NCBI GenBank assembly: GCA_016932915.1 | Contig: JAFGBY010000030.1 | Location: 9,671 to 73,670 of the forward strand | DNA length: 64,000 nucleotides | Direction of reading: 5' to 3' | Source: Acidobacteriota bacterium | Lineage (GTDB): Bacteria; Acidobacteriota; DATKUA01; JAFGBY01 | Shown here: in pieces, positions 30,179 to 64,000 of the stretch | Layout: the number at the start of each line of letters is the position of its first letter | How positions within the stretch are numbered: the first letter of the stretch is position 1 | Position numbers and translations under genes: made by a program | Notes under the pieces: generated by a model | Database searches by the model: none | What the model was told of the DNA's origin: nothing | The model's input: only the letters and a program-made list of their open reading frames with translations

Positions 30179-31702
30179 TTAGTGATTATTCCCGGAAAGC
30201 TCAACTTCTATATCATCAGATGCACTATGATCGAGCCTTATTTTTCTGCGCCCCACTGAAACCACCCATGTTTCCCCATCATCCACCCTGCTTTCGAGGA
30301 CAATGCAATTGCCTTTTTTTAAACCCGATTTCTTTGCGCGTTCACCGATTGCTGTGACAGTTGCCTCGGAACCTGTGCGTAGCAGGCTCAACTGAAACTT
30401 TTTACCCTTCGCAACTTGTAATGGATCTGCCGGAATCGACTCCCCGTGAGGTCCCTCTTCCGGGTGACCCAGCATACCGTCGATATAACCGATTGCTTCG
30501 TTATCGTGCAGATGTTCCAGGTGATGGGCTATGCTGTGAACCTGACCTTCGGGCGCCCCAACTTTCTGTAAATAGGTCTCCCAGAGACGATGAGCTCGTA
30601 ATATCCTTACTGCTTCTTTCTCCCCTGAATCGCTGAGCTTGAATCCGCCATCGGAAGAGATAAGCATTTCATCCTGGGTCAACAGGCGGAGGCCTTTCGA
30701 CAGATACTTATCGTGTGAATGAATGTAACCCTTGATAACCTGTTCACTGACAGGTTTACCTCCCTCACGAAGGATAGTCACCAGGATATCCTCAGTGAGT
30801 TCCTGTGGAATCATTCGCATCCTGCGGAGCTTCTTCGCAATCATCCCGTAGCGTGGAGCAACCGCAAGGACAAACAGAAATTGGAAAGTACAGAATAGCA
30901 TAATCGCCCCGCCGCCGGATGAATCGAGCCAGATGCTTATATATAGCCCCCCGATAACACTTGTCGTCCCAAAAAGCGCTGCGAGAAGCATCATCCGGTC
31001 AAGCCGGTCACTCAGCAGGTATGCCGTAGCAGCGGGCGTAATGAGCAGGCCCACAACAAGAATTACACCAACCATGCTGACAGCGCTAACGACTACCAGT
31101 GAAACCGAGGTCGTCAGCAGGTAATCGATCAGCACCACCGGAATTCCTATAGAAGCCGCCATGATGGGATCAAACGCGGTAATCTGGAAATAACGGAAGA
31201 ATAATATAATCAAGGTCAGGACAATCGACGCTACGATTGCCGCCACCCAGAGGTCGCTATCCGCGATTCCAAGCACATCGCCCATTATGAAATGGACTAT
31301 ATCGATATGAATATATTCATGGAAAACCGAAACCAGAACGACGCCGGCAGCAAAGATGCCTGTATAAATAATTCCGATTGCGGTATCTTCCTTTATCCTT
31401 GAAATATTTGAAACAAAACCTATCAACGCCACGGTCACAACCGCAGCAATTATGGAACCGATCAGCATCGCAGGGGCGTATGCCTCCACGTCGAATATCA
31501 GCTTCATAAAGAGGTAACCGCCGCTCACTCCTGCGATCATAGCGTGCGAAAGGGCATCACCCAGGAAGGACATCTTCCTTAGAATAACAAGACATCCGAT
31601 GACAGAGCAGACTACCGCGGCTATTGTCCCGCCGATCATCGATTTTACGAAAAATGCCTGGCCAAGCGGTTCGATAAAAGCGGTATGGAGCAGTTCTATC
31701 AT
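30179..31702 (-). CDS. Metal (Zn/Mn/Fe-type) ABC transporter permease fused C-terminally to a complete DtxR-family metalloregulator (HTH + metal-binding + FeoA/SH3-like)
   Basis: N-terminal ~290 aa form an ABC-3 type permease (8-9 TM). Residues ~300-507 parallel DtxR along their length (RAHRLWETYL vs RKHRLAERLL; HSIAHHLEHLHDNEAIGYIDGMLGHPEEGPHGESIP vs the DtxR metal-site region; terminal SH3-like ...KGNCIVLESRVDDGETWVVSVGRRKIRLDHSASDDIEVE). Confidence 0.7.
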   Translation of the reverse strand: MIELLHTAFIEPLGQAFFVKSMIGGTIAAVVCSVIGCLVILRKMSFLGDALSHAMIAGVSGGYLFMKLIFDVEAYAPAMLIGSIIAAVVTVALIGFVSNISRIKEDTAIGIIYTGIFAAGVVLVSVFHEYIHIDIVHFIMGDVLGIADSDLWVAAIVASIVLTLIILFFRYFQITAFDPIMAASIGIPVVLIDYLLTTSVSLVVVSAVSMVGVILVVGLLITPAATAYLLSDRLDRMMLLAALFGTTSVIGGLYISIWLDSSGGGAIMLFCTFQFLFVLAVAPRYGMIAKKLRRMRMIPQELTEDILVTILREGGKPVSEQVIKGYIHSHDKYLSKGLRLLTQDEMLISSDGGFKLSDSGEKEAVRILRAHRLWETYLQKVGAPEGQVHSIAHHLEHLHDNEAIGYIDGMLGHPEEGPHGESIPADPLQVAKGKKFQLSLLRTGSEATVTAIGERAKKSGLKKGNCIVLESRVDDGETWVVSVGRRKIRLDHSASDDIEVELSGNNH

Positions 31703-38476: not shown

Positions 38477-38488
38477 AAAGACGAAAAT

Positions 38489-38520
38489 GCCGGGCCTTCA
38501 AAGCCCGGCATAATTTTGTT
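38489..38520. terminator. Bidirectional rho-independent terminator between the convergent 37055-38476 (+) and 38531-39082 (-) genes
   Basis: gccgggc-cttcaaa-gcccggc stem-loop flanked by aaaat on the left and ttttgttt on the right. Confidence 0.65.
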
Positions 38521-38530
38521 TGAAAAAAGA

Positions 38531-39082
38531 TTACAGCTTGACACCAATTACAAACAGGACCTCAAGACCACCTAAATCAGACTCTTCGATGCTGAGCAGA
38601 TAATATCTTGCTTCACCACCTATGAACAGCCCACCACCAAGACAGTAATTTAACCCTGCAGCAAACCAGGCACCAAGACCGCTATCATCTGTAATTCCTG
38701 ACATATCATAGCTGCCGAGTAATAAACCGGCGCCTATTTTCGGATCAAGGGCATCTTTACCAAGATGGTAATAGCCACCAAACAGAATAAAAGTCTGGTC
38801 AAGATCAAACAGCTCCAAAACAGAATCCATGGTTGAGAACAACGACAAGCCTGCCGTGAGTTCGATCTCAGGTGTAATCATAAAACCGGCATTTGCGCCA
38901 AAAGCAATGTTATGATCCCAGCTGTCACTAATATCGGAATTTGTAATAATGTGATAACCGATATTTGCTGAAAGTGTGAAACCGGAACTCTTTTTTACTG
39001 GCTCTTCCTGCGCAAAAGCGGTGAAGCTAAAGAGCAGCATAAGGCCCACCAACAACGAAACATAAATATTCTTCCTCATCAA
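38531..39082 (-). CDS. Small outer-membrane beta-barrel protein (OmpW/opacity-porin-like)
   Basis: Signal peptide. Alternating hydrophobic beta-strand pattern. C-terminal ...LFVIGVKL aromatic/hydrophobic terminus. 183 aa. Confidence 0.5.
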   Translation of the reverse strand: MMRKNIYVSLLVGLMLLFSFTAFAQEEPVKKSSGFTLSANIGYHIITNSDISDSWDHNIAFGANAGFMITPEIELTAGLSLFSTMDSVLELFDLDQTFILFGGYYHLGKDALDPKIGAGLLLGSYDMSGITDDSGLGAWFAAGLNYCLGGGLFIGGEARYYLLSIEESDLGGLEVLFVIGVKL

Positions 39083-39206: not shown

Positions 39207-40691
39207 CTATTGGAATCTGGAATAGTACTCAATAAATGTAGGATCGAATATCTTTTTACTAAAGCTGTATTCCGGGTCTAATTCTGACACTTTTTTCATA
39301 TATACTTCAGCGGAGGAAAGAAGATTTGCATCCTGTTCACCGGTCAATCTATATCTCGAGAAATATACAAGCCCCAGGAAAGCATTCATACCGGCGCTGT
39401 CTTCGTATGCCGGCAATGCTTCAAGGAAAGTATCCGTAGCTTTTTCCAGGTCTCCAGCTAAATAGTACTTCAAACCGATATTAATCTTATCCCGCCCAAC
39501 GACTTTAAAATCTTTATAGAATCCCCGGACCTGTTCATTTGTGCTGTCCAGTGCGTTGGCTTTATTGTAATAAGTCCTGGCGGACGAATAGTCTTTTTGA
39601 TCAAGCGCCTGTTTCGCGCCATCAATATATTCCCTGATTTCATCTTTCATCTTATCCGAACCGGAAGCAGCCTGGAGTTTTTTATTTATCTCCCCCAGCT
39701 GGTACTTCGCCCTGCTGTTTTCTGGATCAATTCTGAGGGCCCTTTCGAATTTCAATTTAGAATTCACCAGGTCGCCCGCTTTATAATCTTCTATTGCGTT
39801 ATCAACCAGCGCTTCCGCTTCCTTCTGTTTTTGCTGTGAGGCTGCTCTCTCAGAATTACTCCTCGCATCCCTGATAAGTTTATCCAATGTTTTATTTTCC
39901 GGTTGGAGGTTTTGCGCCTGTTTGTACATCTTTATCGCAGATGAATAATCGCCTGATTTTTCATAATCCTTACCGCTGTTTACATAGCGCTCCGCCTTTT
40001 CAGCATTATCAATTTTTGTAATCCATTGGCGCGCTTCTTTATTAGCTGAATCTTCTTTCAGTGCTTTATTGAAAGCGGTCTTTGCAGCTGAATAGTTCCC
40101 ACGGTCGTACTCGCGTCTACCATCTCGAATCGCATTATTGATTCGGCTTTGACGTTGTGCGTTTTGTAATTCTGTAGATGTCAAAACAGTCGTTGAAGTT
40201 TTAACCGTGGCGGTTGGCTGTACTGTAGTAGTGGCAGTGGGTGTAATCGATGTCGGAGTCACAACCGGTGTTGTTGTCGTAGTCGAAGTATTCTGGTTAG
40301 AAGCGCTCACACGCTGTTTTCCATCGCTCAACATACTGTTCAACCTTGAATACAAATCCTTACTTTCACGGATTTCGCCTTCCTGGTTAGAACGCTCAAG
40401 CCATGAAATCGCCTGTGAATAATTTTTTAGTTCATAATGGCAGAGGCCAAGATAATAATAAGGGAAATAATCGATATATTTAGTACCGTAAGCCCTTCTT
40501 CCGGCTTTCGGTGATGGTTCCTGAGCAATCAATCGGTTAAGGATGCTTACCGCCGCGCCGAAATTACCATCATCGATTAATTCTATTGCCCTCTCATATG
40601 TCTCGTACCATCTCTCAGCAAAAACTAATGATGAGAAAAGACAAATAACAACAAGCAGAACAACTGGGCTTTTAATTATATTTCTCATCAT
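39207..40691 (-). CDS. Secreted TPR-repeat protein with a Thr/Pro-rich linker. Paralogue of 26060-27343.
   Basis: Signal peptide. FAERWYETYERAIELIDDGNF...YIDYFPYYYLGLCHY block shared with the 26060 gene. TSTTTTTPVVTPTSITPTATTTVQPTATVKTSTTV linker. Many TPRs. Confidence 0.6.
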   Translation of the reverse strand: MMRNIIKSPVVLLVVICLFSSLVFAERWYETYERAIELIDDGNFGAAVSILNRLIAQEPSPKAGRRAYGTKYIDYFPYYYLGLCHYELKNYSQAISWLERSNQEGEIRESKDLYSRLNSMLSDGKQRVSASNQNTSTTTTTPVVTPTSITPTATTTVQPTATVKTSTTVLTSTELQNAQRQSRINNAIRDGRREYDRGNYSAAKTAFNKALKEDSANKEARQWITKIDNAEKAERYVNSGKDYEKSGDYSSAIKMYKQAQNLQPENKTLDKLIRDARSNSERAASQQKQKEAEALVDNAIEDYKAGDLVNSKLKFERALRIDPENSRAKYQLGEINKKLQAASGSDKMKDEIREYIDGAKQALDQKDYSSARTYYNKANALDSTNEQVRGFYKDFKVVGRDKINIGLKYYLAGDLEKATDTFLEALPAYEDSAGMNAFLGLVYFSRYRLTGEQDANLLSSAEVYMKKVSELDPEYSFSKKIFDPTFIEYYSRFQ

Positions 40692-42853
40692 TCAATCCCC
40701 AGTTCTTTAAGGAATGTCTCAGAATTCATATTCGAGATATTATAATTCAGGTTGTTGACCTGCCCCTCGACCACCGAAACATCGAAGGTCTTTCGGACAT
40801 TCAGACTGTCATTAAACACAGTGATCGTATACTGCCCTACTGGAAGTTTCAGCTCACATGGAGAGACCTTCCCGGCTACCTCTATTTCTTTATTTGAACT
40901 ATCCACAACTGACTCAATGGTTCCCCAGGGCACAACGTTTATTCTTACAAGCCCTTCTCCGGCTACAAGAGGACGGCCAATCGGCTCAGTTTCTTTACCC
41001 TTACCGGTAAATAGGATAACCGCCACGATGGCAATTGCGATAACTGCGACAACTCCTAATATTATTGGAAGTGGAGATTTTCCGGGTTTTTTTGCCTTGA
41101 TTGTAGCGGAAGGCTCCGGTTTGTATTCCTTTGCTGCTCCAGTATAAACAGTTGGGGCATCAGGTGCAATTTCCTGCTTTCGTATACCTGTAGTCGGCGT
41201 CGCGACAACAGTAGGAACAGAAGTACTTTCCATTCCTCCTGAATAAACAGTTTCCTGTTCTGCCGTTTTTGAACTTTTATCCATTAATGTGGCGACTTCA
41301 GAAGTTGTTTTCACACCTGCAGCGACAAATGTTTCGCTATCAGGAGGAACTGCAGCCCCCCCGGTAAGTTTATCCAATTCCGATTTTACTTTAAGGACAT
41401 CTGGATCGTTGGAATCAAGAGAAAGTGCAGCAGACAGGGATTTCTGCGCTTCATAATAATTCTTTACCCTTATGTTCTCCTTGATATGATTTAGAATCAT
41501 ATCAATTTGCTTCTTATCATCAGCCCGATCACGCTTGTTATTGATCGCCTCTCTTAATTCAGTGGAATATTTATTCTTTGGATCGATATCATCAAGAAGT
41601 TTAACTTCTTTTAACGCATCGATATATTGACCTTTGTTTATCAGTGTATTGATCTTCTTGACTTGATCATTAAGCAGCTGTTCTTTTTCCTTATCAGCAA
41701 TCGTAGTCTGGATACGGGAAATCATTATTTTAGCGGAAGTATCATCAGGAAGAATATCGAAAGCGCTTTCAGCCATTTTATAAGCTTCTTTAAATTTCTC
41801 TTCCTTGTAGAGTTTGTCGGCCTGTTTTAATATTCCCTCAACATCGCCTTTTTTAGTTTTGATAAGTTCCGATTCGACCTTTTCAATTAACCTCTTTAAA
41901 ACTGAATTATCAGGATCGAGAGATAGAGCTTTATTATATATCTCCGCTGCATTCTGGAATTTCTTCGCCTTCATCAGGTTTTTACCCTGTTCGATGAGCT
42001 TAACAATCTCTCCCTGAAGCGCTGGCTGAGTAGCCATTTTCTTTTCGCCGTAAAGATCAATGACGGCTTCGAGATCTTTGATCATCTCACTCATTGATTG
42101 ATATCTCTTCTCCTGTTCCTTCTCAACCGCTTTCATAATTACAGTTTCAATTTCGATAGGAACATCGAGATTCAACTCCTCAAAACTTGGCAGTGGTTCG
42201 TGGGCAATTTTATATAAAATAGTTGTGATCGATTCTGATGTAAAAGGTTTCTTGTGAGTCATCATCTCCCACAGGATTATACCTACAGAGAAAATATCTG
42301 AACGGTTATCGATCTTTTTACCCATAACCTGTTCGGGAGACATATAATCAGGGGTACCGATGATCATGCCGGTCTTGGTCATATCGGATGAAGCCATATG
42401 AGCAATACCAAAATCCATTAATTTAGCTTTACCGGTTTTAAGCAGCATTACATTAGCCGGTTTGATATCCCTATGAACAACTCCCTTGTTATGCGCGTAT
42501 TCGCATCCCTTACAAATCTGGAGAATGATATTTAGCTTCTCAGGAAGAGACAGTTCCTGCGTGAGCATTATATGCTTTAAATCATCGCCATCGAGAAATT
42601 CCATAGCGATATAATAGGTCTGGTCATCATGGCCTAAGTCATATATGGTGATTATATTCTCGTGGTTCAGCTGCGCTGCCGCCTGGGCTTCGATCAGGAA
42701 ACGTTTTAACATCTCCTCATCTTTATCAACGCCTTCTAACATAGTTTTCAGCGCAACAAGCCTGCCCAGAACGGAATCCCTGGCACGGTATACCATTCCC
42801 ATGGCGCCCTTGCCTAGTTCACCGATGATTTCATATTTTCCTATCTTCTTCAT
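40688..42853 (-). CDS. Hanks-type Ser/Thr protein kinase with intracellular TPR repeats, a TM segment and a C-terminal extracytoplasmic PEGA-like domain
   Basis: GKGAMGMVYRA, HRDIKPANVML, DFGIA, GTPDYMSPE. TM ILGVVAVIAIAIVAVILF. C-terminal KVSPCELKLPVGQYTITVF. Confidence 0.8.
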   Translation of the reverse strand: MKKIGKYEIIGELGKGAMGMVYRARDSVLGRLVALKTMLEGVDKDEEMLKRFLIEAQAAAQLNHENIITIYDLGHDDQTYYIAMEFLDGDDLKHIMLTQELSLPEKLNIILQICKGCEYAHNKGVVHRDIKPANVMLLKTGKAKLMDFGIAHMASSDMTKTGMIIGTPDYMSPEQVMGKKIDNRSDIFSVGIILWEMMTHKKPFTSESITTILYKIAHEPLPSFEELNLDVPIEIETVIMKAVEKEQEKRYQSMSEMIKDLEAVIDLYGEKKMATQPALQGEIVKLIEQGKNLMKAKKFQNAAEIYNKALSLDPDNSVLKRLIEKVESELIKTKKGDVEGILKQADKLYKEEKFKEAYKMAESAFDILPDDTSAKIMISRIQTTIADKEKEQLLNDQVKKINTLINKGQYIDALKEVKLLDDIDPKNKYSTELREAINNKRDRADDKKQIDMILNHIKENIRVKNYYEAQKSLSAALSLDSNDPDVLKVKSELDKLTGGAAVPPDSETFVAAGVKTTSEVATLMDKSSKTAEQETVYSGGMESTSVPTVVATPTTGIRKQEIAPDAPTVYTGAAKEYKPEPSATIKAKKPGKSPLPIILGVVAVIAIAIVAVILFTGKGKETEPIGRPLVAGEGLVRINVVPWGTIESVVDSSNKEIEVAGKVSPCELKLPVGQYTITVFNDSLNVRKTFDVSVVEGQVNNLNYNISNMNSETFLKELGIE

Positions 42854-42917: not shown

Positions 42918-44279
42918 TCAGAATGCTAATTTAAATTTTACTTTTAATCCCTGATGTTTGCTTAATTCAAGGAGGTCGTTATCCTTCAATACCTGAGCCA
43001 TTACCTTACGGCCATTTACATATGTGCCATTGAGGCTGCCCTTATCGACGATTACATATTCATTATCCTGGTAATGGATCTCCGCATGCAGTTTGCTTAC
43101 TCTGGGCTGCGGAATAACAATATCGTTCGATGAATGCCTGCCGATTTTGATCGGATGCTCCTTGTAAACCGGAGTTTCTTCCGCCCCCAACCCACTGATA
43201 TTTATCAGCTTGAAACCGATGGCCTGTGAAGGTTTATCCTGCGCGGCCGCATCCTCCAGGCTTGTGTTGTAATCAATCGAGGACGGCAGGGAATGCAGGG
43301 AAAAATCGACACTATCTACTGCAATCGAAGCCAAAGCGTCATAAAGTTCTCTTGCAGTGCTGAACCTGCTTGCAGGTTTTTTCTCAAGACACTTCATGAT
43401 TATCTTATCAAGGGTTGAAGAGATATTAACATCTTTAAGCTTCCCAACCTGCTTTGGCTTATCTTTTACCTGTTTGACCATAACGTCGACCGGATTCAGT
43501 GCATTAAATGGTACATCACCCGAAACGACCTCATACATGATTACTCCAAGCGAATAAAGATCAGCACGTTGATCCAGGGTTTCGCCCTGCACCTGCTCCG
43601 GTGACATGTACTGCGGGGTACCAAATACAACTCCTTTTTGAGTGAGTGTACCACCGGTTGTTCTGCCTCCGACATCCATCAGCTTAGCGATACCAAAATC
43701 GAGAACCTTCACAAAATCCTGCCGGTTATTCTTATTGCAGATCATGATGTTCTCGCTTTTTAAATCCCTGTGGATAATACCCTGGCCATGGGCTTCCTCC
43801 AGAACTTCACATATCTGGAGGAAAATCGGTATTGCCCTCTCTTCAGGGAAAGCGCCGTCACGAGTAATCAATACCTTCAAATCAAGGCCATTTATATATT
43901 CCAGGATAATATAAACGAGACCATCCTCGGTTTGCCCAAAATCATACATAGAAACCGCATTAGGATGAGAAAGTTTGGATGTGTTTTTTGCCTCCCGCCT
44001 GAATCTTTCGAACGATTCCGTATTCTCAGCAAAATCCTCCCTCAAGACTTTAATAGCGACATCCTTATCGAGCATAAGGTGTTTTGCCCTGAAAACATAC
44101 CCCATGCCTCCTTCACCCAGTTTCTCTGAGATTACATAATGGCCACCGATCTTTTTACCGATAAATGTAATTTCGGTCGCAGGTGTGGCAGGAAGCCTAT
44201 TGCCACAAAACGGACAGAACTTCCCTTCACTAAAAAAATCGGCAGTTATATCTTTAGTGCAATATGGACAAGCCGGCAT
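42918..44279 (-). CDS. Ser/Thr protein kinase with an N-terminal zinc ribbon and a C-terminal FHA domain
   Basis: CPYCTKDI...CPFCGN. Kinase motifs HRDLKSENIM, DFGIAK, GTPQYMSPE. FHA IKIGRHSSNDIVIP...VIVDKGSLNGTYVNGRKV. Confidence 0.8.
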   Translation of the reverse strand: MPACPYCTKDITADFFSEGKFCPFCGNRLPATPATEITFIGKKIGGHYVISEKLGEGGMGYVFRAKHLMLDKDVAIKVLREDFAENTESFERFRREAKNTSKLSHPNAVSMYDFGQTEDGLVYIILEYINGLDLKVLITRDGAFPEERAIPIFLQICEVLEEAHGQGIIHRDLKSENIMICNKNNRQDFVKVLDFGIAKLMDVGGRTTGGTLTQKGVVFGTPQYMSPEQVQGETLDQRADLYSLGVIMYEVVSGDVPFNALNPVDVMVKQVKDKPKQVGKLKDVNISSTLDKIIMKCLEKKPASRFSTARELYDALASIAVDSVDFSLHSLPSSIDYNTSLEDAAAQDKPSQAIGFKLINISGLGAEETPVYKEHPIKIGRHSSNDIVIPQPRVSKLHAEIHYQDNEYVIVDKGSLNGTYVNGRKVMAQVLKDNDLLELSKHQGLKVKFKLAF

Positions 44280-44315: not shown

Positions 44316-45761
44316 TTACAGACCCGGTACCAGACGAGCAGCATGTTCGATCATTATGCCTTCGTTAAGTGTTTCGGCAAACCGCCGGGTCATTACTCCA
44401 ATAACATACCCGTCTTCAGTAAAGATGGGGCCACCACTGTTCCCCGGTAAAACGGATACATCCAACTGTATGGTATTTTCAATCTTACGTATTCTCCCGA
44501 AAGAAGGAGAAGCGTTTGTATTCGCGAGCTCCTGCGGAGAAATACCAAGAGGGAAACCATATACCATAACCGTATCAGCGACTTTATAAGGATCGCGCCC
44601 ACGGTAAATTTTTACGCTTTTAAAAGTCCCGCCAATGGCTTTGAGAATTGCTATATCATTATTATCGCGTTCATGTACTTCAACGTTTATCCCGGCAACC
44701 CAATCCGGATTACGTTTCGGCCTGTACATCCTGTCCTCGGCTGTCGTAAATATCTCAAGGTTGCCATCACGGGTGTTATAAGAATTTTCAAAAGTATATT
44801 TTCCGCCCGCTCTGAACCTCACGCCATTCACCCAAACACTGAGGAAATGATCAACGCGTAAATCCAATGATTTGCTCAGTTCCATCTCATATGCCCACTC
44901 TGGTTGGAATTTCCACGGGTACACGATATGTTTACATGTTACAAGGTATCCATCATCACGAACGAAGAAACCTGTACCATAACTTTCAAGGCTCTTTTTG
45001 AATTTTCCGTTATCATCATAGAAATCAAACCTCGAATAAACGAAGGCAACACTTTGCTTGTGTGTTTCGATCAGGTTGTAGAGTTTATCTTTAGCGCTTG
45101 CCATTTCGGAAGTTATCCGATCAGTCTCAGCCCGCGCTTCTGCAGTTTCCTGCTGAGCTTGCTGTAAATCGTCTTTTACTTCTTTTCCCTGCATCACCAG
45201 GAATACAATAGCACCAATAAGCGCCAGAATAAAAAATGAAGTGACAACTTTAAAAGTACGAGAAGATTTTTTAAGCGCGTTATTAACAGCTTCTTTAATA
45301 AATACAGCGGTACCACCGATTGCGCCACGGTCGGAGGATTTCGCTTTTTGTAGAGCATCATCTATCATCATCGCAACAGTCTGGCTTCCCACTCCTCTTC
45401 CCTGATCGACAGCCTGTGAAACACGCGTTTTAGGAGATGTATCTGACATCCCCGGCAGGGCAATCTGAACTGATGAGCGAGGCCCACCTTTTCCGAATTC
45501 AATATCATCCCCGTTATTGAGTTTTACCCGGGTTATTTTTTTACCGTTAACATACGTGCCGTTTGTACTGCCAAGATCTTCAAGCCAGTACGCTCCATCT
45601 TCCAATGTGATAACAGCATGATTCTTGGAAGCATCAAGATCAGTTTTCGGATCAAACCTCAGGTTATTATCCGATCCCCGTCCGATTGTTATCTTACCCT
45701 GCGAAAATTCCTCTAATTTCCCTTTTAAGGAACCCGCATTGAATGATAATTTTATGCTCAT
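44316..45761 (-). CDS. FHA domain - TM - trypsin-like (S1/HtrA-type) serine protease fusion protein
   Basis: N-terminal FHA (ITIGRGSDNNLRF...LEDLGSTNGTYVNGKKI). TM SFFILALIGAIVFLVM. Catalytic triad candidates TCKHIV (His), NDIAILKA (Asp), PGNSGGPIF (Ser). Confidence 0.7.
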   Translation of the reverse strand: MSIKLSFNAGSLKGKLEEFSQGKITIGRGSDNNLRFDPKTDLDASKNHAVITLEDGAYWLEDLGSTNGTYVNGKKITRVKLNNGDDIEFGKGGPRSSVQIALPGMSDTSPKTRVSQAVDQGRGVGSQTVAMMIDDALQKAKSSDRGAIGGTAVFIKEAVNNALKKSSRTFKVVTSFFILALIGAIVFLVMQGKEVKDDLQQAQQETAEARAETDRITSEMASAKDKLYNLIETHKQSVAFVYSRFDFYDDNGKFKKSLESYGTGFFVRDDGYLVTCKHIVYPWKFQPEWAYEMELSKSLDLRVDHFLSVWVNGVRFRAGGKYTFENSYNTRDGNLEIFTTAEDRMYRPKRNPDWVAGINVEVHERDNNDIAILKAIGGTFKSVKIYRGRDPYKVADTVMVYGFPLGISPQELANTNASPSFGRIRKIENTIQLDVSVLPGNSGGPIFTEDGYVIGVMTRRFAETLNEGIMIEHAARLVPGL

Positions 45762-45779: not shown

Positions 45780-46784
45780 TTATTGAATTTCAGAATCAGC
45801 AGGGGGAACAATGTAACGTGATGTTTTTTCCAAAACATCATCTTCAGGGCTTGTGAAGTCTACGGTATCCGGTCCATCCGTCTTCTCTGTATCGGATGCC
45901 CTGTTATATGATGCCAGGATAATAGTTATATTATCTTTGCCCCCGGAATTATTCGCTTCCTGTACTAACCTCTTAACCGCTGTTGTTGTATTTGCGGAAG
46001 TCTGAATAATTTCGAAAATCTTCTCATCCAATACCATGTCAGTTAGTCCATCACTACATAACAATATTTTATCATTGGACTGAAGACTAAGTGTATAAAA
46101 GCCAACTTCAACACGTTCGGAAACACCAACAGCCTGCAAAATAACATTTTTAGCAAGATGATGCCGTGCTTCTTCTTTAGTAATGTTTCCCGCTTCGACA
46201 AGTTTACTGACAAGCGACTGGTCTTTTGTAACCTGTATAAAATCATTATCACGAACAAGGTAAAGCCTGCTATCCCCAACCTGTGCGATAAAAAGTTCGT
46301 TCTCAATAATTACAGAGGCGGTAATAGTCGCCCCCATCCCATTATATTTTGAGTTTTTCATCGCTGCTCTGAAAACATCTCTGTTCGCTGTTTTTATTCC
46401 GCCCTGGAGAACAGTGGGAAATTCGTCATTGTCCGGAATCTTTTCGCACCAATTTTTCCTGAACCAGGATTCCATTGAATCTCTTACCATCTGACTGGCA
46501 ACATCACCTGCTGCCGCGCCACCCATACCATCTGTTACCATCAACAGTATGCCTTTGTCTAATGTCGATGCTATCATTTCCTCATCAGACTCAAGCGTCA
46601 AACTTGAGTTGAGATTCATTAGAAGATAGTTATCTTCATTATGTTTTCGCTGACGTCCCACATCGGTATCGTAGGCAAAAACCAGGTAATCGCCCTGCAT
46701 AACTTTCTGGATTTCCTCGGGCGAAAGTTTAATTGTCCTTCTTGATTCGGTGAAATCCTCTTTTTTCTTTCCAAATATAGACAT
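45780..46784 (-). CDS. PP2C-family Ser/Thr protein phosphatase
   Basis: MVTDGMGGAAAGDVAS, LLCSDGLTD, NNSGGKDNITII, the PP2C metal-binding motifs. Confidence 0.85.
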   Translation of the reverse strand: MSIFGKKKEDFTESRRTIKLSPEEIQKVMQGDYLVFAYDTDVGRQRKHNEDNYLLMNLNSSLTLESDEEMIASTLDKGILLMVTDGMGGAAAGDVASQMVRDSMESWFRKNWCEKIPDNDEFPTVLQGGIKTANRDVFRAAMKNSKYNGMGATITASVIIENELFIAQVGDSRLYLVRDNDFIQVTKDQSLVSKLVEAGNITKEEARHHLAKNVILQAVGVSERVEVGFYTLSLQSNDKILLCSDGLTDMVLDEKIFEIIQTSANTTTAVKRLVQEANNSGGKDNITIILASYNRASDTEKTDGPDTVDFTSPEDDVLEKTSRYIVPPADSEIQ

Positions 46785-46795
46785 CCAATTGAGTC

Positions 46796-47698
46796 CTATA
46801 AAATCGGAGCACGATATTTAAAGAGTTGTTTTCCAATTAATAAATGGTCATTGTCTTCCAGCTCAAGTTTCTTTTTAATCTGGATAAATACACCATTACT
46901 ACTACTATTATCTTCGATATAAAATTTCCCTCGTTCATGAGAAAGTATTGCATGACGGTTTGACATAAATTTGTCGTCGGGGAATGAAATATCTCCGCTC
47001 TGGCGCCCGATGAATACGGTATCGTGCGTAATATAATACCTGTTTCCTTCAGCCCTGTTAGAATAGATTTGAATAAGTATAGCGACTATTTTTTTACTTG
47101 AAGCGCCATAATAATTAAATATTTCCTCAGTTTCGTCCTGCAGTGGGATATCCAGGTCTTCAGATGAATATGTCTTGAATTTCAGTAATTGCTGCCCCAT
47201 CAGGATATAAGCATCATTGTATAATTCCGTTCTTTCACTTATTTTATAAAAAATCCCATTAAATGTATCTATGTCTTCCACAATCATTTTATCATCAACA
47301 AATTGAAATGCAGCATGTTCGGGGGATAGGTATGTATCCGCAGGAAAAGTGATGTCTCCCGAAGATCTTCCCAATACCGTTCTTTTCTTCGTTATCTCAT
47401 AGGATTTACCTTCAGAGGAGTCATCATTGATCTGGATAAGTTTTGGATTTATCCTGGCATCAGCAGCTGATTGATAAATTCTGGTTTTTGCAGGGTCTTC
47501 GCCTTCGCTTAGTTCCAGAAATTCATCCAGGTTTTTTGCTATCCTTGTTTTTGGTACGTTATCATTCTCTTGATTCATAGGATTCGCAACAGCATCACCT
47601 GCTATTTCTGTAGCATCATCATCCAGTTTTGCGCCGCACTGCATACAAAAAACATAATTATCATCATTTTGATTACCGCAGTTTGGACATAGTTTCAT
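46796..47698 (-). CDS. Zinc-ribbon protein with two FHA domains
   Basis: CPNCGNQ...CMQCG. FHA1 TVLGRSSGDITFPADTYLSPEHAAFQF. FHA2 TVFIGRQSGDISFPDDKFMSNRHAILS...SSSNGVFI. SD taaggagt upstream. Confidence 0.7.
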   Translation of the reverse strand: MKLCPNCGNQNDDNYVFCMQCGAKLDDDATEIAGDAVANPMNQENDNVPKTRIAKNLDEFLELSEGEDPAKTRIYQSAADARINPKLIQINDDSSEGKSYEITKKRTVLGRSSGDITFPADTYLSPEHAAFQFVDDKMIVEDIDTFNGIFYKISERTELYNDAYILMGQQLLKFKTYSSEDLDIPLQDETEEIFNYYGASSKKIVAILIQIYSNRAEGNRYYITHDTVFIGRQSGDISFPDDKFMSNRHAILSHERGKFYIEDNSSSNGVFIQIKKKLELEDNDHLLIGKQLFKYRAPIL

Positions 47699-47754
47699 AA
47701 AAATACTCCTTAAAAGTCTAAAAATAAAACTGAGTTTTATCTATTATAAACTAT

Positions 47755-47976
47755 CAACTGTCCTTTTTATTAGTCCGTGAAGCAATAAATCCAATACATA
47801 CTGCGATTCCCGCTCCTATCAGCCCACCTACCAGGGGGCCCGGGCCTACAACAGCCCTGGCACCTCAGGTATTACCTGTACTGCCACCACCGAGTGAAAG
47901 CAGGAGGCCAATTCCCGCACCCATCATTATCAGTCCGTTATAGCGCCTGAAAAATTCTCTAAGCTTTTCTTCCATC
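47755..47976 (-). pseudogene. Small glycine-zipper membrane peptide ORF interrupted by an in-frame TGA (36 codons, TGA, then 36 more in-frame codons)
   Basis: My translation: MEEKLREFFRRYNGLIMMGAGIGLLLSLGGGSTGNT * GARAVVGPGPLVGGLIGAGIAVCIGFIASRTNKKDS. The Gly-zipper character continues across the stop. Confidence 0.3.
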
Positions 47977-48068
47977 AGAAATTCCTTTGACACAGTTGAA
48001 TTTAAAGAATAAACAGCCCATAAGCTTTCTCTTCAGTATTTTACCCAAAAAATTCATATATTCAACTG

Positions 48069-49781
48069 TCAATATCCAAAAGCCTTACCATCAAGTCTCG
48101 GATCTGAAGCGCCTCTGAATAACTTTTCTTCATATAAATAATCAGCAATATTTACACAGCCGAAGTATCCCTTCAGCTCGATATTATGACCAATTGCAGT
48201 AAGAGAATCGACAGTCTCAGGACTGAAACCAAAATCCTCCATATATAACTTGTCCGGAAACCATTGATGATGAATCCTTGGGGCTATTATAGCTTCACGG
48301 ATATTCATATCATTTCTCGTGACATTAATCAGAGCCTGAAGTACGGAAGATATGATCTTTGGGCCCCCAGGTGAACCAAGCCCAATCAACCTCTCACCAT
48401 CTTTAACGCAGATTGTTGGTGACATTGAACTAAGCATTCTTTTACCAGGCTCTATCGAGTTCTTTTTCGAGCCGACAAGGTTATACATATTAGGGGCATC
48501 ATATCCCACACTGAAATCATCCATCTGATTATTCAGGAGAATTCCAGTCCCCTTTACGACGGCCTTTGATCCATATCCACCGTTAAGAGTATATGTATTA
48601 CTTACGCAATTTCCCCATTGATCAATAATAGTAAAATGCGTCGTCTCATCCGGTTCAGATACATTGTAAAGATGTTTCTCGTCAGCTTCCAGACTGAGTA
48701 ATTTATCAGGTTTGATGTTACGAGCGATTCCTTTCAGGTAATTCTCATCAAGCAGTTTGGATATTGGTACATCCACAAAATCCGGATCACCCATAAAAAC
48801 CGCCCGGTCACGGAAGCTCACTTTCATAGCCTCGGCTAACAGATGGTAATAGGCGCTGGTATCATACTTGATATCTTCTGATTCTGAATTTTCAAGAATT
48901 CTCAGAACCTGGGCAATTACAATTCCACCGGAACTCGGAGGAGGCATAGTATATATATCATAACCTCTATATTTAAAATGGAGTGGTTCTCTCCATTTAA
49001 TCTTATAACCAGCAAGGTCTTCCATTGTTATCAAACCACCACAAGCCTTCATTTCTTCAGTTAAAATCTTCGCAGTTTGCCCCTGATAAAAATCTCTTTC
49101 ACCCTGCTCCTGTATTCTTTTTAATGTTTCAGCTAGTTCAGGTTGCCTGATAATATCACCGATAATCCACCCTGATTCTCGTTTACTCACAAAAATACTG
49201 CTGGCAGGGAACCGTTCGAATAATGGTCTTTTCTGGTTCAGCGATTCCGCTGTACGCTGGTTTATTGAAAATCCATCGTTTGCTGCAGTTATCGCAGGTT
49301 GCAGTAAATCTGCCCATTTCAGCTTCCCAAACTTCTGATGAGCCACCCACATGCCTTTTACTGTCCCGGGCACTCCGGCGGCCAGGTAGCCGACCTGGAG
49401 TTTATCAAAATTAACTTTCCCGTCTTCATTTCTATAAATCGATTCAGAAACCTGTTGTGGCGCCATTTCCCGGTAATCGAGTGCATATACTCCCCCATCC
49501 CCTGTTCTAATAAGCATAAATCCACCACCTCCAATATTTCCGGCAGTGGGATAAACAACCGCAAGTGAAAACGCAACGGCAACCGCGGCATCAACAGCAT
49601 TACCACCTTTTTTTAAAACCTCGACTCCCACTCTGCTTGCGTACTCGCTAGCGGAAACGACCATACCGTTTCTAGCGGTTTCCGGTTCGATGCTATAGGT
49701 GTATATTTTATTAACAGGAATTAATGATATTATTATCAGTGATATCATAAGCAGAAATAAGATTAATCTGCTTTTACTCAT
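48069..49781 (-). CDS. ggt: Gamma-glutamyltranspeptidase
   Basis: Signal/TM. Nucleophile region ETTHFTIIDQWGNCVS. GGT family length (570 aa) and conserved DDFS...GSPGG blocks. Confidence 0.85.
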   Translation of the reverse strand: MSKSRLILFLLMISLIIISLIPVNKIYTYSIEPETARNGMVVSASEYASRVGVEVLKKGGNAVDAAVAVAFSLAVVYPTAGNIGGGGFMLIRTGDGGVYALDYREMAPQQVSESIYRNEDGKVNFDKLQVGYLAAGVPGTVKGMWVAHQKFGKLKWADLLQPAITAANDGFSINQRTAESLNQKRPLFERFPASSIFVSKRESGWIIGDIIRQPELAETLKRIQEQGERDFYQGQTAKILTEEMKACGGLITMEDLAGYKIKWREPLHFKYRGYDIYTMPPPSSGGIVIAQVLRILENSESEDIKYDTSAYYHLLAEAMKVSFRDRAVFMGDPDFVDVPISKLLDENYLKGIARNIKPDKLLSLEADEKHLYNVSEPDETTHFTIIDQWGNCVSNTYTLNGGYGSKAVVKGTGILLNNQMDDFSVGYDAPNMYNLVGSKKNSIEPGKRMLSSMSPTICVKDGERLIGLGSPGGPKIISSVLQALINVTRNDMNIREAIIAPRIHHQWFPDKLYMEDFGFSPETVDSLTAIGHNIELKGYFGCVNIADYLYEEKLFRGASDPRLDGKAFGY

Positions 49782-50320
49782 TATTTCTCCTTTAAATCGA
49801 GTTTCAAACGTTCCCGCATTTCCAGGAAAAAATCGAGATACGCTTTTGTCTTATAATCAGGATAAGTCCAGGGCATAAACTCAACACCTGATTTGGAATG
49901 GAAAATGTAATCAACCTGGGCGTAAATTCCTCCGGCAAGATAAATCCTGTGAGCAAATGGTTTTGCTGAAGCAAGCACCATACTCGATAATGTAATATAA
50001 CCGGGGTCAAGATTTACCGGCCTATCCACTCCTGGCAAATTGGAGCTATATTTGTTCTCTATTTCATTTGTTTTAATTTTAACATTACTGAGCTTATCCG
50101 GAGTTATCAAATCAGAGAAAGAGAACAGGAATTTCTTGAGATCAGATCCCATCTGTGATTTGTAATAATCGGTAAAATCCCAGTTAACAGGACCGGTTTT
50201 GATATCGATTTGAGAAAACTCCTTTTCAAGGTCGGAGCATAAATCTTCAATAAAATCCAAGGATGCTGTGAGCACTCCGCAGAATAGCTTTACTTTTTCT
50301 ACATCTTTTATCCGTGCCAT
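49781..50320 (-). CDS. Conserved hypothetical protein. Its stop overlaps the ggt start by 1 nt.
   Basis: 179 aa, no recognisable motif. Tight translational coupling with ggt. Confidence 0.4.
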   Translation of the reverse strand: MARIKDVEKVKLFCGVLTASLDFIEDLCSDLEKEFSQIDIKTGPVNWDFTDYYKSQMGSDLKKFLFSFSDLITPDKLSNVKIKTNEIENKYSSNLPGVDRPVNLDPGYITLSSMVLASAKPFAHRIYLAGGIYAQVDYIFHSKSGVEFMPWTYPDYKTKAYLDFFLEMRERLKLDLKEK

Positions 50321-53271: not shown

Positions 53272-54609
53272 TTACCGGTCTTTCAGGTTTTCCTTGAAGT
53301 AGCTGACAAGTCCTGATATTGAAATCTCATCCTGGTCACCTTCAGGGAACTTCTTTATCTTTACCTTCCCCTCACTAATTTCCTCTTCGCCTAATATTAC
53401 AACGAAAGGTATACCGACCTTATCTGCATATTTAAGCTGTTTCCCCATCTTAACATTATCCGGATAAAGCTCGGCATTTATACCACCATTACGCAGTCGG
53501 GCAAGTAATTTGAAAGCTTCAAGATTCTCGTTGTTACCAAAGTTAGTTATCATAACACTCGTAGAATTCGGAGGAACTTGCACAAGATTAAATTCTTTAA
53601 CCGCTTCTATGATTCTCTCCAACCCAAGTGAGGTTCCAACTGCCGCAATATCATCCTTTAAGAACATTCCAACCAGCTTATCATATCTTCCTCCGCCTGT
53701 GATTGATCCAACCTTTGGCCTTGAAATTTCTGTTTCGAAAACCATTCCGGTGTAATAATCCAACCCACGGGCAAGAGATATATCAAACTGGTAGCGTTTC
53801 TCATAAATTCCTATTGCTTGCATGTAAGAATCGAGTGTGGACATTTCTTCAAGCGCTAAGACCGCTTCCTGGATACCGCCCAAGTCCTTTTTAAGAGAAT
53901 CGAGATAATCCCGATTCGAAGAAAACTTTCTCTCAATTAATTTGAAGATACTCTCAATATGTTCATTTGAGAAACCTGATTTCTTTAATTCTTCCTTAAC
54001 ACCATTGGGACCTATTTTATCGAGTTTATCAATTGACCTGCAGACCGGAATAAGCGCATCCTCTCCCAGTCCTGAAAAAATCAATATCGAGTTCAACAGG
54101 TTTCGATGATTAATCCTTATAACAAACTCGTCAAATCCCAGGTTAAGAAGAGAAGAATTAACTACAGACAGAATTTCAGCTTCCGCGGTAATTGATTGAG
54201 AACCAAGAATATCAACATCGCACTGATAAAACTCACGGAACCTCCCCTTCTGTGGTTTATCTGCGCGCCAAACCGGTTGAATTTGATATCTTTTAAATGG
54301 CTTTGGTAATTCCTGGTATTGCGCTACCACCCTTGCCAGAGGCACTGTAAGGTCATAACGGAGGGCAACATCACGCTCACCCTGATCCTTGAATTTGTAT
54401 ATCAACCTGTCGCCTTCTTCACCATATTTTCCGGCAAGAATATCAAGGTGCTCTAAAGCTGGAGTTTCCAGAGGGAGAAAACCATGAGCTTCAAAGACGG
54501 TTCTTATTCTCTTTATAACTTCATTTCTCAGAAGCATATCTTCAGGTAATATATCCCTGAAACCCTTAAGTAATCTAGGCTCAATTTTATTATTCGTCAT
54601 TTTCTCCAA
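53272..54609 (-). CDS. hisS: Histidyl-tRNA synthetase
   Basis: Class II motifs and the HisRS signature (LRYDLTVPLARVV; FKRYQIQPVWRADKPQKGRFREFYQCDVDI; GGGRYD). C-terminal anticodon-binding domain. Confidence 0.9.
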   Translation of the reverse strand: MEKMTNNKIEPRLLKGFRDILPEDMLLRNEVIKRIRTVFEAHGFLPLETPALEHLDILAGKYGEEGDRLIYKFKDQGERDVALRYDLTVPLARVVAQYQELPKPFKRYQIQPVWRADKPQKGRFREFYQCDVDILGSQSITAEAEILSVVNSSLLNLGFDEFVIRINHRNLLNSILIFSGLGEDALIPVCRSIDKLDKIGPNGVKEELKKSGFSNEHIESIFKLIERKFSSNRDYLDSLKKDLGGIQEAVLALEEMSTLDSYMQAIGIYEKRYQFDISLARGLDYYTGMVFETEISRPKVGSITGGGRYDKLVGMFLKDDIAAVGTSLGLERIIEAVKEFNLVQVPPNSTSVMITNFGNNENLEAFKLLARLRNGGINAELYPDNVKMGKQLKYADKVGIPFVVILGEEEISEGKVKIKKFPEGDQDEISISGLVSYFKENLKDR

Positions 54610-62013: not shown

Positions 62014-64000
62014 TTAGAACATCATCCCCATTGAGAATTGGAAGTCTGTCGTATCATCATATATTCCAGGATCCAGATTGTACGCAAATATCAATCTGAT
62101 CGGAGCATTAAATACAGGCATGAAAATTCTTGCTTCAACACCTGTACTCTTCCGGAGGTTGGAAATACTGAAATCCTGATCTTCCGAGAAAGCATTTCCA
62201 GCATCAAAGAACAGAATTAAACGCATTTCATTACTTATAAGGATTTGATATTCAAAGTTGAATAATAACATGCTGGTACCACCGCTGGGAACACCATATT
62301 CATTCAATTCACCGCCGACAGATCTGAGGTTCAAACCACGTATTGTACGGTCGCCGCCCAGGAAAAATCTCTCGGAATATGGAATTGCATCTTCGTCACC
62401 TAGCGGTTCAATCCAACCGAATTGTGCCCGTACTCCGAATACACCTGATCTCATAATTCTGATAAAATCGACTAATTCAACCGAGGTTTTAAAGAAATTG
62501 AGTGTGCCACCCATCCAGCTTGCGCCATATTCAAGAGATAGAGACCCCTTATAGCCACTTGTAGGAAATAATGGATGATCGATTGTATTGACCCTGAAAG
62601 ATTTGATAATAGAAGAAATGATCAATTCATCTTCAGGGAACAACCAGGGGTAGTTCTCATATAACGTTATGTAATACTGGTAATAGTAATAATAATAACT
62701 GTAGTACTCTTCTTCTTCTTCTGTTACCTCAGGGAAGTTGACACTAACTACTTGATAATTATATGTGATTGCTCCACTCCAGAAATCAGAGATAGGATAT
62801 GACATAGTCAACGTACCTCCAACTCTTTTATCCTCGTATCCCGGGTAATCATAATTCCTGATATAAATAGAAGCTCCAAGACCCATTCTCTGGCCGAGGA
62901 ACCATGGATCCGAGAAATTCAGGCTGAAAGTCTCAGCAAGTGTACCAAGCTGGCCACTGATACCAAACGTGTTTCCGGAGCCAAAGAGGTTTTGAGTTTC
63001 AAATGAGAAGGTACCGAAGAATCCTTCCAGTTCGGAGTAAGCAATACCGAAATTGATTATAGTATTACCGCGTTCCTGTACTCTAATACCTAGATCGACT
63101 TCTTTTGTTTCATTATCTACTTCTGGTTTGAGTTCTATCTGGGGTTCAAAGAAACCAAGCTGCTCAATCCTGTTTTTACTATATTCAATACGCTTGAAAT
63201 CATAAACATCACCTTCAGCAATCAACATCTGTCGTCTGATTACATCATCATTTGTTACGGTGTTTCCGGAGATTTCAACTTTTCTCAGATGATATATATC
63301 ATTCTCTGTTATTGATAAAGTAAGATCGACGGTGTGGTTTTCAGTGTTCTTTTTACGGTTATCCCGTATAGACGCCATTACATATCCTTTAAAACCATAT
63401 TGTTGCTGAAGGAAATCAACCAGACCGGTAACATATGTATGATTGTAAATATCTCCAACTTTAAGAATCATCGGAGAAAGTATTTCCTCAGATGTAAACT
63501 CCTTGTTTCCTTCAACATTTATACTTTGAACAGTGTACTGTTTGCCTTCATTTATATTGATTTCAACAATATATTTCTTTTTCTGTTTACCAATTAAAGG
63601 CCATGTTTCAACTGGAATCAGCCTTGGTTCACTGATCTGAACATCAAGATAACCCACTGTCCAATATAATTCCCTGATGCGTACAACATCACGGGCAAAC
63701 TTTAAATCGTTGAAAACATCCTTCTGGTCAAGAAGCGACAATGCGGTATTATTACCCAAGTCTTCCATAACTTTACGGATTTCCCAATCAGTAAAAGCAT
63801 AATTACCCTGAAAGATAAGCTGCTCAATCTGAATGCTACTTCCCTCAACAATGTCAAACACGATATCACAACGTCCTTTTTCTCTTGGAACGACGTTGAC
63901 GTTGATCTCCGCAGCCCGGTAACCTTTAAAACTAAGAGCTTCTTTTATTACCTGCTTAAACGCAGAAACCGTACCCATATTTAAACGGGTACCTCTTTTA
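62014..64000 (-). CDS. bamA: Outer membrane protein assembly factor BamA. The N-terminus, including the signal peptide and first POTRA domains, runs beyond the window end. The reading frame is open to position 64000.
   Basis: POTRA repeats followed by an Omp85 beta-barrel ending ...DDTTDFQFSMGMMF (C-terminal Phe). Contains an unusual EEEEEYYSYYYYYYQYY low-complexity insertion. Confidence 0.75.
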   Translation of the reverse strand, partial: KRGTRLNMGTVSAFKQVIKEALSFKGYRAAEINVNVVPREKGRCDIVFDIVEGSSIQIEQLIFQGNYAFTDWEIRKVMEDLGNNTALSLLDQKDVFNDLKFARDVVRIRELYWTVGYLDVQISEPRLIPVETWPLIGKQKKKYIVEININEGKQYTVQSINVEGNKEFTSEEILSPMILKVGDIYNHTYVTGLVDFLQQQYGFKGYVMASIRDNRKKNTENHTVDLTLSITENDIYHLRKVEISGNTVTNDDVIRRQMLIAEGDVYDFKRIEYSKNRIEQLGFFEPQIELKPEVDNETKEVDLGIRVQERGNTIINFGIAYSELEGFFGTFSFETQNLFGSGNTFGISGQLGTLAETFSLNFSDPWFLGQRMGLGASIYIRNYDYPGYEDKRVGGTLTMSYPISDFWSGAITYNYQVVSVNFPEVTEEEEEYYSYYYYYYQYYITLYENYPWLFPEDELIISSIIKSFRVNTIDHPLFPTSGYKGSLSLEYGASWMGGTLNFFKTSVELVDFIRIMRSGVFGVRAQFGWIEPLGDEDAIPYSERFFLGGDRTIRGLNLRSVGGELNEYGVPSGGTSMLLFNFEYQILISNEMRLILFFDAGNAFSEDQDFSISNLRKSTGVEARIFMPVFNAPIRLIFAYNLDPGIYDDTTDFQFSMGMMF

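Follow-up and report, generated by a model that had tools for sequence, protein, structure and literature searches.

A membrane-spanning FHA-serine protease fusion encoded in a Hanks-type kinase/PP2C phosphatase operon of an Acidobacteriota bacterium

The stretch of DNA analysed here (64,000 nucleotides of an Acidobacteriota bacterium, from contig JAFGBY010000030.1 of GenBank assembly GCA_016932915.1, positions 9,671 to 73,670; called the window below) carries on its minus strand, at 44316..45761, a gene for a protein of 481 residues in which an N-terminal FHA domain is joined through a single transmembrane (TM) helix to an S1 serine protease domain. Our interpretation, to which we would give a probability of roughly 55%, is that this bitopic FHA-protease is a fixed part of a Hanks-type kinase/PP2C phosphatase module, and that its periplasmic protease is recruited or oligomerised in a phospho-dependent manner. 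Hanks-type kinases are numerous in bacteria, but the outputs through which they act have been worked out in only a few cases, and most of these are cytoplasmic. The family to which the protein belongs is a concrete candidate for the control of periplasmic proteolysis by Ser/Thr phosphorylation, or for feedback of a protease on a receptor kinase.

The gene starts with an ATG, which is credible because close orthologues begin with MSIK or MGIK too. From there the protein runs, with all parts on the minus strand, through the FHA domain (residues 1-101, 45459..45761), a low-complexity linker carrying the motif P-[KR]-T-R-[VMI] (residues 102-123, 45393..45458), a juxtamembrane segment made of a tandem motif, GSQTVAMMIDDALQKAKSS / GGTAVFIKEAVNNALKKSS (residues 124-170, 45252..45392), the TM helix (residues 171-192, 45186..45251), a helical stalk or spacer (residues 193-237, 45051..45185) and an S1 protease domain of the PA clan, HtrA-like in kind (residues 238-481, 44319..45050). 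The AlphaFold2 model of the whole protein, for which an alignment of 69 FHA+S1 fusions was the input, has a mean predicted local distance difference test (pLDDT) score of 85; the score is 96-98 in the FHA domain, 29-56 in the linker (residues 105-167), 71-95 in residues 170-237 and mostly 90-98 in the protease. In the model, residues 170-237 form one unbroken helix of 68 residues, which comprises both the TM segment and the periplasmic stalk.

Residues 172-190 are the sole hydrophobic segment of the protein (19-residue Kyte-Doolittle mean of 2.83, with none other above 1.6), and the charges flanking the TM helix are +4/-1 on its N-terminal side and +2/-4 on its C-terminal side. By the positive-inside rule, this places the FHA domain, and with it the linker and the tandem motif, in the cytoplasm, and the stalk and protease outside. 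The window also encodes BamA (62014-63978, minus strand; 439 bits against a cut-off of 297), so the organism is diderm and 'outside' means the periplasm. A sequence-only reading of this DNA had proposed just such a layout, with the FHA domain inside, one TM helix and the protease outside, and it is borne out by the Pfam domains, the one hydrophobic segment and the charge bias.

FHA domains bind phosphothreonine (pThr) peptides. The Pfam FHA profile (PF00498) is covered in full by residues 24-90 (E 1.9e-20, 73.5 bits against a cut-off of 20.7), and the nearest sequence matches in the PDB are the FHA domains of GarA, OdhI and Rv1747. The pThr-binding residues G27, R28, S45, H48, S65, T66, N67 and G68 are invariant in the alignment of the 14 closest sequences (alignment A2). 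Judged by these residues the pThr pocket is intact, and binding of pThr peptides is predicted.

At the other end of the protein, Pfam Trypsin_2 (PF13365) matches residues 262-456 (E 8.9e-17, 62.6 bits against a cut-off of 27.6). The three motifs quoted in the sequence-only reading are all present, TCKHIV at residue 275, NDIAILKA at 368 and GNSGGP at 440, and the catalytic triad that it had described as intact is so: His278 (codon 44928-44930), Asp369 (44655-44657) and Ser442 (44436-44438, all on the minus strand) align with the catalytic motifs xxHV, D-x-A-x-L-K and GNSGGP of MucD and DegQ in the PDB. These three residues, together with the GNSGGP oxyanion-hole motif, are invariant in all 69 aligned FHA+S1 fusions, the members of which are 20-70% identical to the query, and the pLDDT around the triad is 94-98. 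In a Foldseek comparison against the PDB, the modelled domain is matched best by the catalytic domains of DegS-deltaPDZ and HtrA1 (E of about 1e-12, target TM-score 0.72-0.78). By its predicted triad and modelled fold, then, the domain is an HtrA-like serine protease that should be catalytically competent. Compared to DegS and DegP it has about 60 extra residues between the His and the Asp, with a P-W-[KE]-[FY] signature after the His. Pfam gives no match to a PDZ domain in the protein, which ends about 25 residues past the protease core. Two proteins, P0216 and P0219, have the same protease subtype but carry at the N-terminus a TerB (tellurite-resistance-like) domain instead of FHA.

The gene is the third of six in an operon on the minus strand, read from 47698 down to 39207 with intergenic gaps of 11, 18, 36, 64 and -4 nucleotides. 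The first gene (46796..47698) encodes a protein of 300 residues with a zinc ribbon and two FHA domains recognised by Pfam, and is kept in the orthologous operon of locus L001. It is followed by a PP2C-type Ser/Thr phosphatase of 334 residues (45780..46784; Pfam PP2C, and NCBIfam Stp1/IreP with 252.8 bits against a cut-off of 230). Downstream of the FHA-protease gene lies that of a soluble Hanks-type kinase of 453 residues with a C-terminal FHA domain (42918..44279; Pkinase E 6.8e-56, FHA E 5e-20), which has a Cys-rich N-terminus (CPYC...CPFC) and lacks any hydrophobic segment. The next gene encodes a receptor-type Hanks kinase of 721 residues (40688..42853; Pfam Pkinase E 3.2e-54 and TPR), in which the kinase domain is followed by TPR repeats, a Thr-rich juxtamembrane region, one TM segment (about residues 595-616, Kyte-Doolittle mean 3.43) and an ectodomain of about 100 residues. 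The last encodes a secreted protein of 494 residues (39207..40691) with matches to Pfam TPR families, a hydrophobic N-terminus resembling a signal peptide and a Thr/Pro-rich linker. The first 4 nucleotides of its gene are also the last 4 of the kinase gene, and it is kept in loci L001 and L002. With the zinc ribbon-FHA-FHA protein, the phosphatase and the two kinases all on the same strand, the earlier claim that the fusion sits inside a kinase/phosphatase operon is confirmed.

This linkage holds well beyond the window. A relative with 67% identity (protein P0003; loci L001 and L002) has the same six-gene operon in full, and among ten informative loci a Hanks kinase is adjacent to the fusion in all ten and a PP2C phosphatase in eight. 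Nine of these ten loci have at least one adjacent kinase which is itself bitopic, with an ectodomain of 100-280 residues. Fusion genes next to kinase genes are found in Gemmatimonadota (L004, L017 and L019), Planctomycetota (L010), Chloroflexia (L053) and metagenome contigs (L003 and L005); each of the distant loci comes from a separate contig, and L010, L017, L019 and L053 come from the scan of species-representative genomes. In addition, eight of the 69 aligned fusions (P0088, P0093, P0098, P0099, P0103, P0116, P0117 and P0119) have the reversed domain order, all eight consisting of a classical signal peptide, the S1 protease, one TM helix and a C-terminal FHA domain, which results in the same in/out topology. 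Both reversed loci examined (L087 8001-9578 and L088 8001-9608) are operons with PP2C and kinase genes. That two domain orders give the same topology in the same type of operon is good evidence for a selected design, in which the FHA domain is inside, the protease outside and the receptor kinase adjacent. The operon link is thus a robust and general feature, stronger than could be told from the window's own sequence.

The architecture was thought to be rare in the sequence-only reading, which does not hold. FHA and Trypsin_2 occur together in 73 of the 120 best clusters at 90% identity and in 74 of the 150 best representatives at 50% identity, and an exhaustive HMMER scan of 1.84 billion representatives at 50% identity gave 3,052 proteins with E <= 1e-10, of which 108 reached E <= 1e-30. 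All 74 FHA+S1 proteins among these best 150 representatives have the FHA domain first and the S1 domain after it with a hydrophobic segment between the two, and 56 of the 69 aligned fusions have the order FHA, single TM and S1, with 13 deviating. The window protein shares 57-70% identity over its full length with P0002-P0009. None of the matches listed in the profile scan of species-representative genomes with alignment A2 is a close orthologue, the best having 35% identity in the protease part.

Several of the clusters bear automatic names (e.g., 'S1-C subfamily serine protease / FHA protein' from JGI). A 2008 survey of prokaryotic serine proteases includes an FHA-FHA-trypsin protein of Bacteroides thetaiotaomicron (NP_811686.1), in a domain listing with only the generic label 'metabolism and signalling' (PMC2605481); it has the same combination of FHA and Trypsin_2 as the fusions described here. 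The Aravind-group papers on conflict systems and lipocones mention FHA solely in other contexts. The window gene is an ordinary member of an FHA-TM-S1 family that is catalogued and common. Since this family is both large and phylogenetically broad, hundreds of genes could be annotated once a single member had been characterised by experiment.

The segment of the protein that is most conserved is neither of its two domains. Among nine close orthologues, the mean pairwise identity is 87% in the juxtamembrane segment (residues 124-170), 74% in the protease, 66% in the FHA domain and 43% in the stalk, and 30 of the 47 juxtamembrane columns are invariant. The segment repeats in tandem the unit G-x-x-T-(hydrophobic)-I-x-[DE]-A-[LV]-x-x-A-x-K-S-S, in which Thr129 and Thr149 are invariant, and despite such conservation its pLDDT in the AlphaFold2 model is only 29-51. 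A hidden Markov model of the segment matched 28 proteins, where it lies directly before the TM helix; in three of them (P0207, P0234 and P0236) a periplasmic OmpA-like peptidoglycan-binding domain replaces the protease. In other homologues (P0022, P0024 and P0027) FHA and TM are joined to an SLT lytic transglycosylase domain. Together, the OmpA-like and lytic transglycosylase variants suggest a modular FHA-TM family aimed at the cell envelope.

Closer to the FHA domain, the linker motif P-[KR]-T-R-[VMI] (Thr112, codon 45426-45428) is kept in all nine close orthologues, and twelve Gemmatimonadota fusions have it in the version P-A-T-R-[SN]-I. P-x-T-R is present in 22 of 56 linkers, as opposed to three occurrences in the 24,848 other residues of the same proteins. 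The long open reading frames (ORFs) of the window, 22,216 residues in all, contain [PA]-K-T-R-[IVLM] at three places, one in the FHA-protease and two in the linker of the zinc ribbon-FHA-FHA protein encoded by the first gene of the operon (residues 50-53 and 71-74, in the sequences VPKTRIA and PAKTRIY). The Gemmatimonadota operon at L004 shows the same sharing, with VPPTRV in its zinc ribbon-FHA protein and PPATRNI in its fusion. Both the juxtamembrane repeat and the sharing of P-x-T-R with the zinc ribbon-FHA-FHA protein are new here. On the strength of these sequence patterns, Thr112 and the juxtamembrane threonines are candidate phospho-acceptor sites or FHA ligands.

In the mechanism that we favour, the kinases of the operon would make pThr epitopes, for which the candidates are the juxtamembrane regions of the kinases and the P-K-T-R and G-x-x-T-V linker motifs of the FHA-protease and of the zinc ribbon-FHA-FHA protein. 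The FHA domain would then dock on these epitopes, which would recruit the FHA-protease to the side of the receptor kinase, oligomerise it, or both. This way, the phosphorylation state in the cytoplasm would set where, and whether, the protease acts on its substrate in the periplasm, and dephosphorylation by the PP2C enzyme would reverse the process. Of all this, the data show the architecture, the topology as judged by hydropathy and charge, the intact triad and FHA pocket and the linkage to the operon, whereas the docking to operon partners, the identity of the phosphorylated sites, any effect on protease activity and the substrate are inferred. Contacts between FHA and pThr, either in cis or in trans, are used by GarA, Rv1747 and Chk2. 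As for how a signal might cross the membrane, the catalytic His follows the end of the TM helix after anything from 53 to 193 residues across the family; a stalk of such variable length argues against rigid transmission through the helix, and favours recruitment or oligomerisation, i.e., an effect of proximity.

Several points weigh against this mechanism. The literature search gave no experiment, functional study or phosphoproteome for the family or the organism, and no co-encoded periplasmic partner is conserved across the lineages examined. The P-x-T-R and juxtamembrane motifs were spotted post hoc and represent just two or three independent clades, and the residue at Thr+3 is not uniformly of the hydrophobic type that many FHA domains favour. 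The topology, in turn, is judged from hydropathy and charge bias, together with the signal peptides found in the reversed class.

A wider version of the mechanism can be drawn from the variants of the juxtamembrane family, and we put it forward more tentatively, as a possibility that we would rather bet against. According to it, FHA-juxtamembrane-TM proteins in general would be a widespread 'inside-out' device, in which receptor Hanks kinases phosphorylate the Thr motifs (P-x-T-R, G-x-x-T-V) conserved in the cytoplasmic linkers, FHA-pThr contacts lead to clustering and this switches on a periplasmic HtrA-like protease. In the sister proteins, an OmpA-like or lytic transglycosylase domain would take the place of the protease. 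If true, cytoplasmic Ser/Thr phosphorylation would directly gate the remodelling of the envelope.

The phospho-dependent recruitment proposed above has to be weighed against readings in which nothing is switched, or in which it is the kinase that is acted upon. It could be that the FHA domain merely anchors a housekeeping quality-control protease to a phosphoprotein-containing complex of the envelope, such as that of the cell wall or of division. This would fit the HtrA-like fold of the protease, the occurrence of the FHA-juxtamembrane-TM cassette with an OmpA-like domain (P0207, P0234 and P0236), the existence of the FHA-TM-SLT proteins, and the peptidoglycan-recycling and amidase genes by the Gemmatimonadota operon, as well as LpoB and DUF1425 near the operon in L001. 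The neighbouring envelope genes, however, vary between lineages, and the strict co-occurrence of a kinase with the PP2C phosphatase that opposes it is better explained by a reversible switch than by a static anchor. We regard a constitutive tether as unlikely. Slightly less likely still, in our judgement, is a feedback or outside-in device, where the receptor kinase, once activated and autophosphorylated, would recruit the protease by way of the FHA domain, and the protease would then shed or trim the ectodomain of this kinase or its ligand, and thereby tune signalling rather than execute its output. No other protein with a periplasmic part is co-encoded as consistently as the receptor kinase (9 of 10 loci), and the one in the window has the Thr-rich cytoplasmic juxtamembrane region on which an FHA domain might dock. 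On the other hand, the ectodomain of the kinase is of a different size and family from one lineage to the next whereas the protease domain is conserved, and such feedback would be a special case of phospho-dependent recruitment and not an exclusive alternative to it.

Two further readings were considered and rejected as very improbable. One is anti-phage defence or abortive infection, with a kinase that senses infection and a trypsin-like effector that responds, which is brought to mind by the PADLOC matches RT-Protease_XI and PDC-M35A to the protease domain and PD-T4-6 and mad6 to the kinases. These matches, however, cover generic trypsin and kinase domains only; the phosphatase, the zinc ribbon-FHA-FHA protein and the TPR protein have no PADLOC match, and other defence components are absent. 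In addition, the would-be effector domain faces the periplasm and not the cytoplasm, the GC content is unremarkable, and the operon is syntenic with housekeeping genes (gamma-glutamyltranspeptidase and DUF4416) in the relative with 67% identity, which is not what a variable island looks like. The other is that the C-terminal domain is a pseudo-protease, serving only as a periplasmic binding module. The lack of a PDZ domain and the insertion between His and Asp could be taken that way, but the triad and GNSGGP are invariant in 69 diverged fusions and the domain is modelled as an HtrA-like fold with pLDDT above 90, and it is on the invariance of the triad that this reading was rejected.

Among characterised systems, those most similar to the FHA-protease are DegS and other membrane-anchored HtrA proteins (MEROPS S1C), which likewise have an N-terminal membrane anchor and a periplasmic protease of the chymotrypsin fold. 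The xxHV, D-x-A-x-L-K and GNSGGP motifs are shared, and the best structural matches are from this group. Unlike them, the FHA-protease is without PDZ, the regulatory module that defines HtrA proteins, and its candidate input domain, the FHA, is cytoplasmic. The scores with the NCBIfam models are all far below the cut-offs: 52.2 bits against 470 for HtrA, 48.8 against 416 for the Do family, 34 against 423 for DegS, 24 against 756 for DegQ and 15.7 against 720 for DegP. In its predicted way of working the protein would be most like membrane-anchored HtrA/DegS, yet by these scores, the lack of PDZ and the extra residues between His and Asp it is not a member of the HtrA family. The same is true of MarP (NF033740; 31.9 bits against 250), the FHA-protease having one TM helix and no multi-TM domain of the CvpA type.

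The operon as a whole resembles the mycobacterial fhaA-fhaB-pstP-pknA-pknB cluster, in that each groups the genes of FHA proteins with that of a PP2C phosphatase and those of a pair of Hanks kinases, of which one is receptor-type. There, too, an FHA protein is anchored in the membrane, and FhaB_Rv0019c is the best NCBIfam match of the FHA domain studied here; the match to the FhaB/FipA model (NF049868) is limited to the FHA part and reaches 63.6 bits, below the cut-off of 125. The differences are that the operon in the window is without rodA and pbpA, that its kinase is without PASTA domains and that FhaB/FipA is not known to carry a periplasmic protease. GarA/OdhI and the Rv1747 ABC transporter are similar in another respect, as the FHA-protease, like them, has next to its FHA domain a disordered Thr-bearing segment, a candidate for phosphorylation and for binding in cis or in trans, although neither GarA nor Rv1747 carries a protease (NCBIfam OdhI gives 37 bits against a cut-off of 200). 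Cis or trans regulation through FHA-pThr contacts in GarA, OdhI and Rv1747 serves as the precedent for the use of the linker proposed here. The type VI secretion protein TagH (TIGR03354) matches the FHA part only, with 42.6 bits against 120.25.

Of the genes around the operons, those related to the envelope are not conserved between lineages. Peptidoglycan-recycling and amidase genes adjoin the Gemmatimonadota operon. About 1.6 kb past the downstream end of the operon at L001, and separated from it by an unannotated gene of 480 residues, there is a DUF1425-LpoB-HmpF-FlgT_N cluster, and at L003 the start of the fusion gene lies within that of a CsgG/FlgT-like lipoprotein (7081-8004). In the window, the genes immediately upstream of the operon are those of gamma-glutamyltranspeptidase (48069-50320, minus strand) and DUF4416, an arrangement also seen in the 67%-identical relative (L001 5468-7710). 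Another gamma-glutamyltranspeptidase gene (L004 13076-14863) is about 3.6 kb from the Gemmatimonadota fusion, which may be a coincidence.

The gap of 370 nucleotides (47699-48068) between the operon and the gamma-glutamyltranspeptidase gene holds an ORF of 42 residues (47865-47993, minus strand) with a hydrophobic tail resembling a glycine zipper (GLIMMGAGIGLLLSLGGGS). Past its stop, the Gly-rich, membrane-like sequence resumes in another frame, and the ORF may be either the gene of a small membrane protein or a frameshifted remnant. On the other side of the operon, a gene for a small outer-membrane beta-barrel protein (38531-39082, minus strand; Pfam OMP_b-brl) is followed by a strong hairpin resembling a bidirectional terminator (38487..38511; a stem of 11 pairs, 7 of them GC), with which the row of genes ends. 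A scan for promoters was uninformative, with 19 sites against 25 expected.

Elsewhere in the window, HisS is encoded at 53272-54609 on the minus strand; apart from one acidobacterial protein with 100% identity, its nearest relatives share at most 62%. The gene at 30179-31702 (minus strand) is unusual, in that a metal ABC-transporter permease (AztB/SloB-like, residues 9-286) is apparently fused to an MntR/DtxR-like segment (residues 352-454). The one at 17853-20447 (plus strand) encodes an 864-residue fusion resembling an MFS transporter and a spermidine synthase, which the NCBIfam model MFS_SpdSyn recognises with 155 bits against a cut-off of 40.

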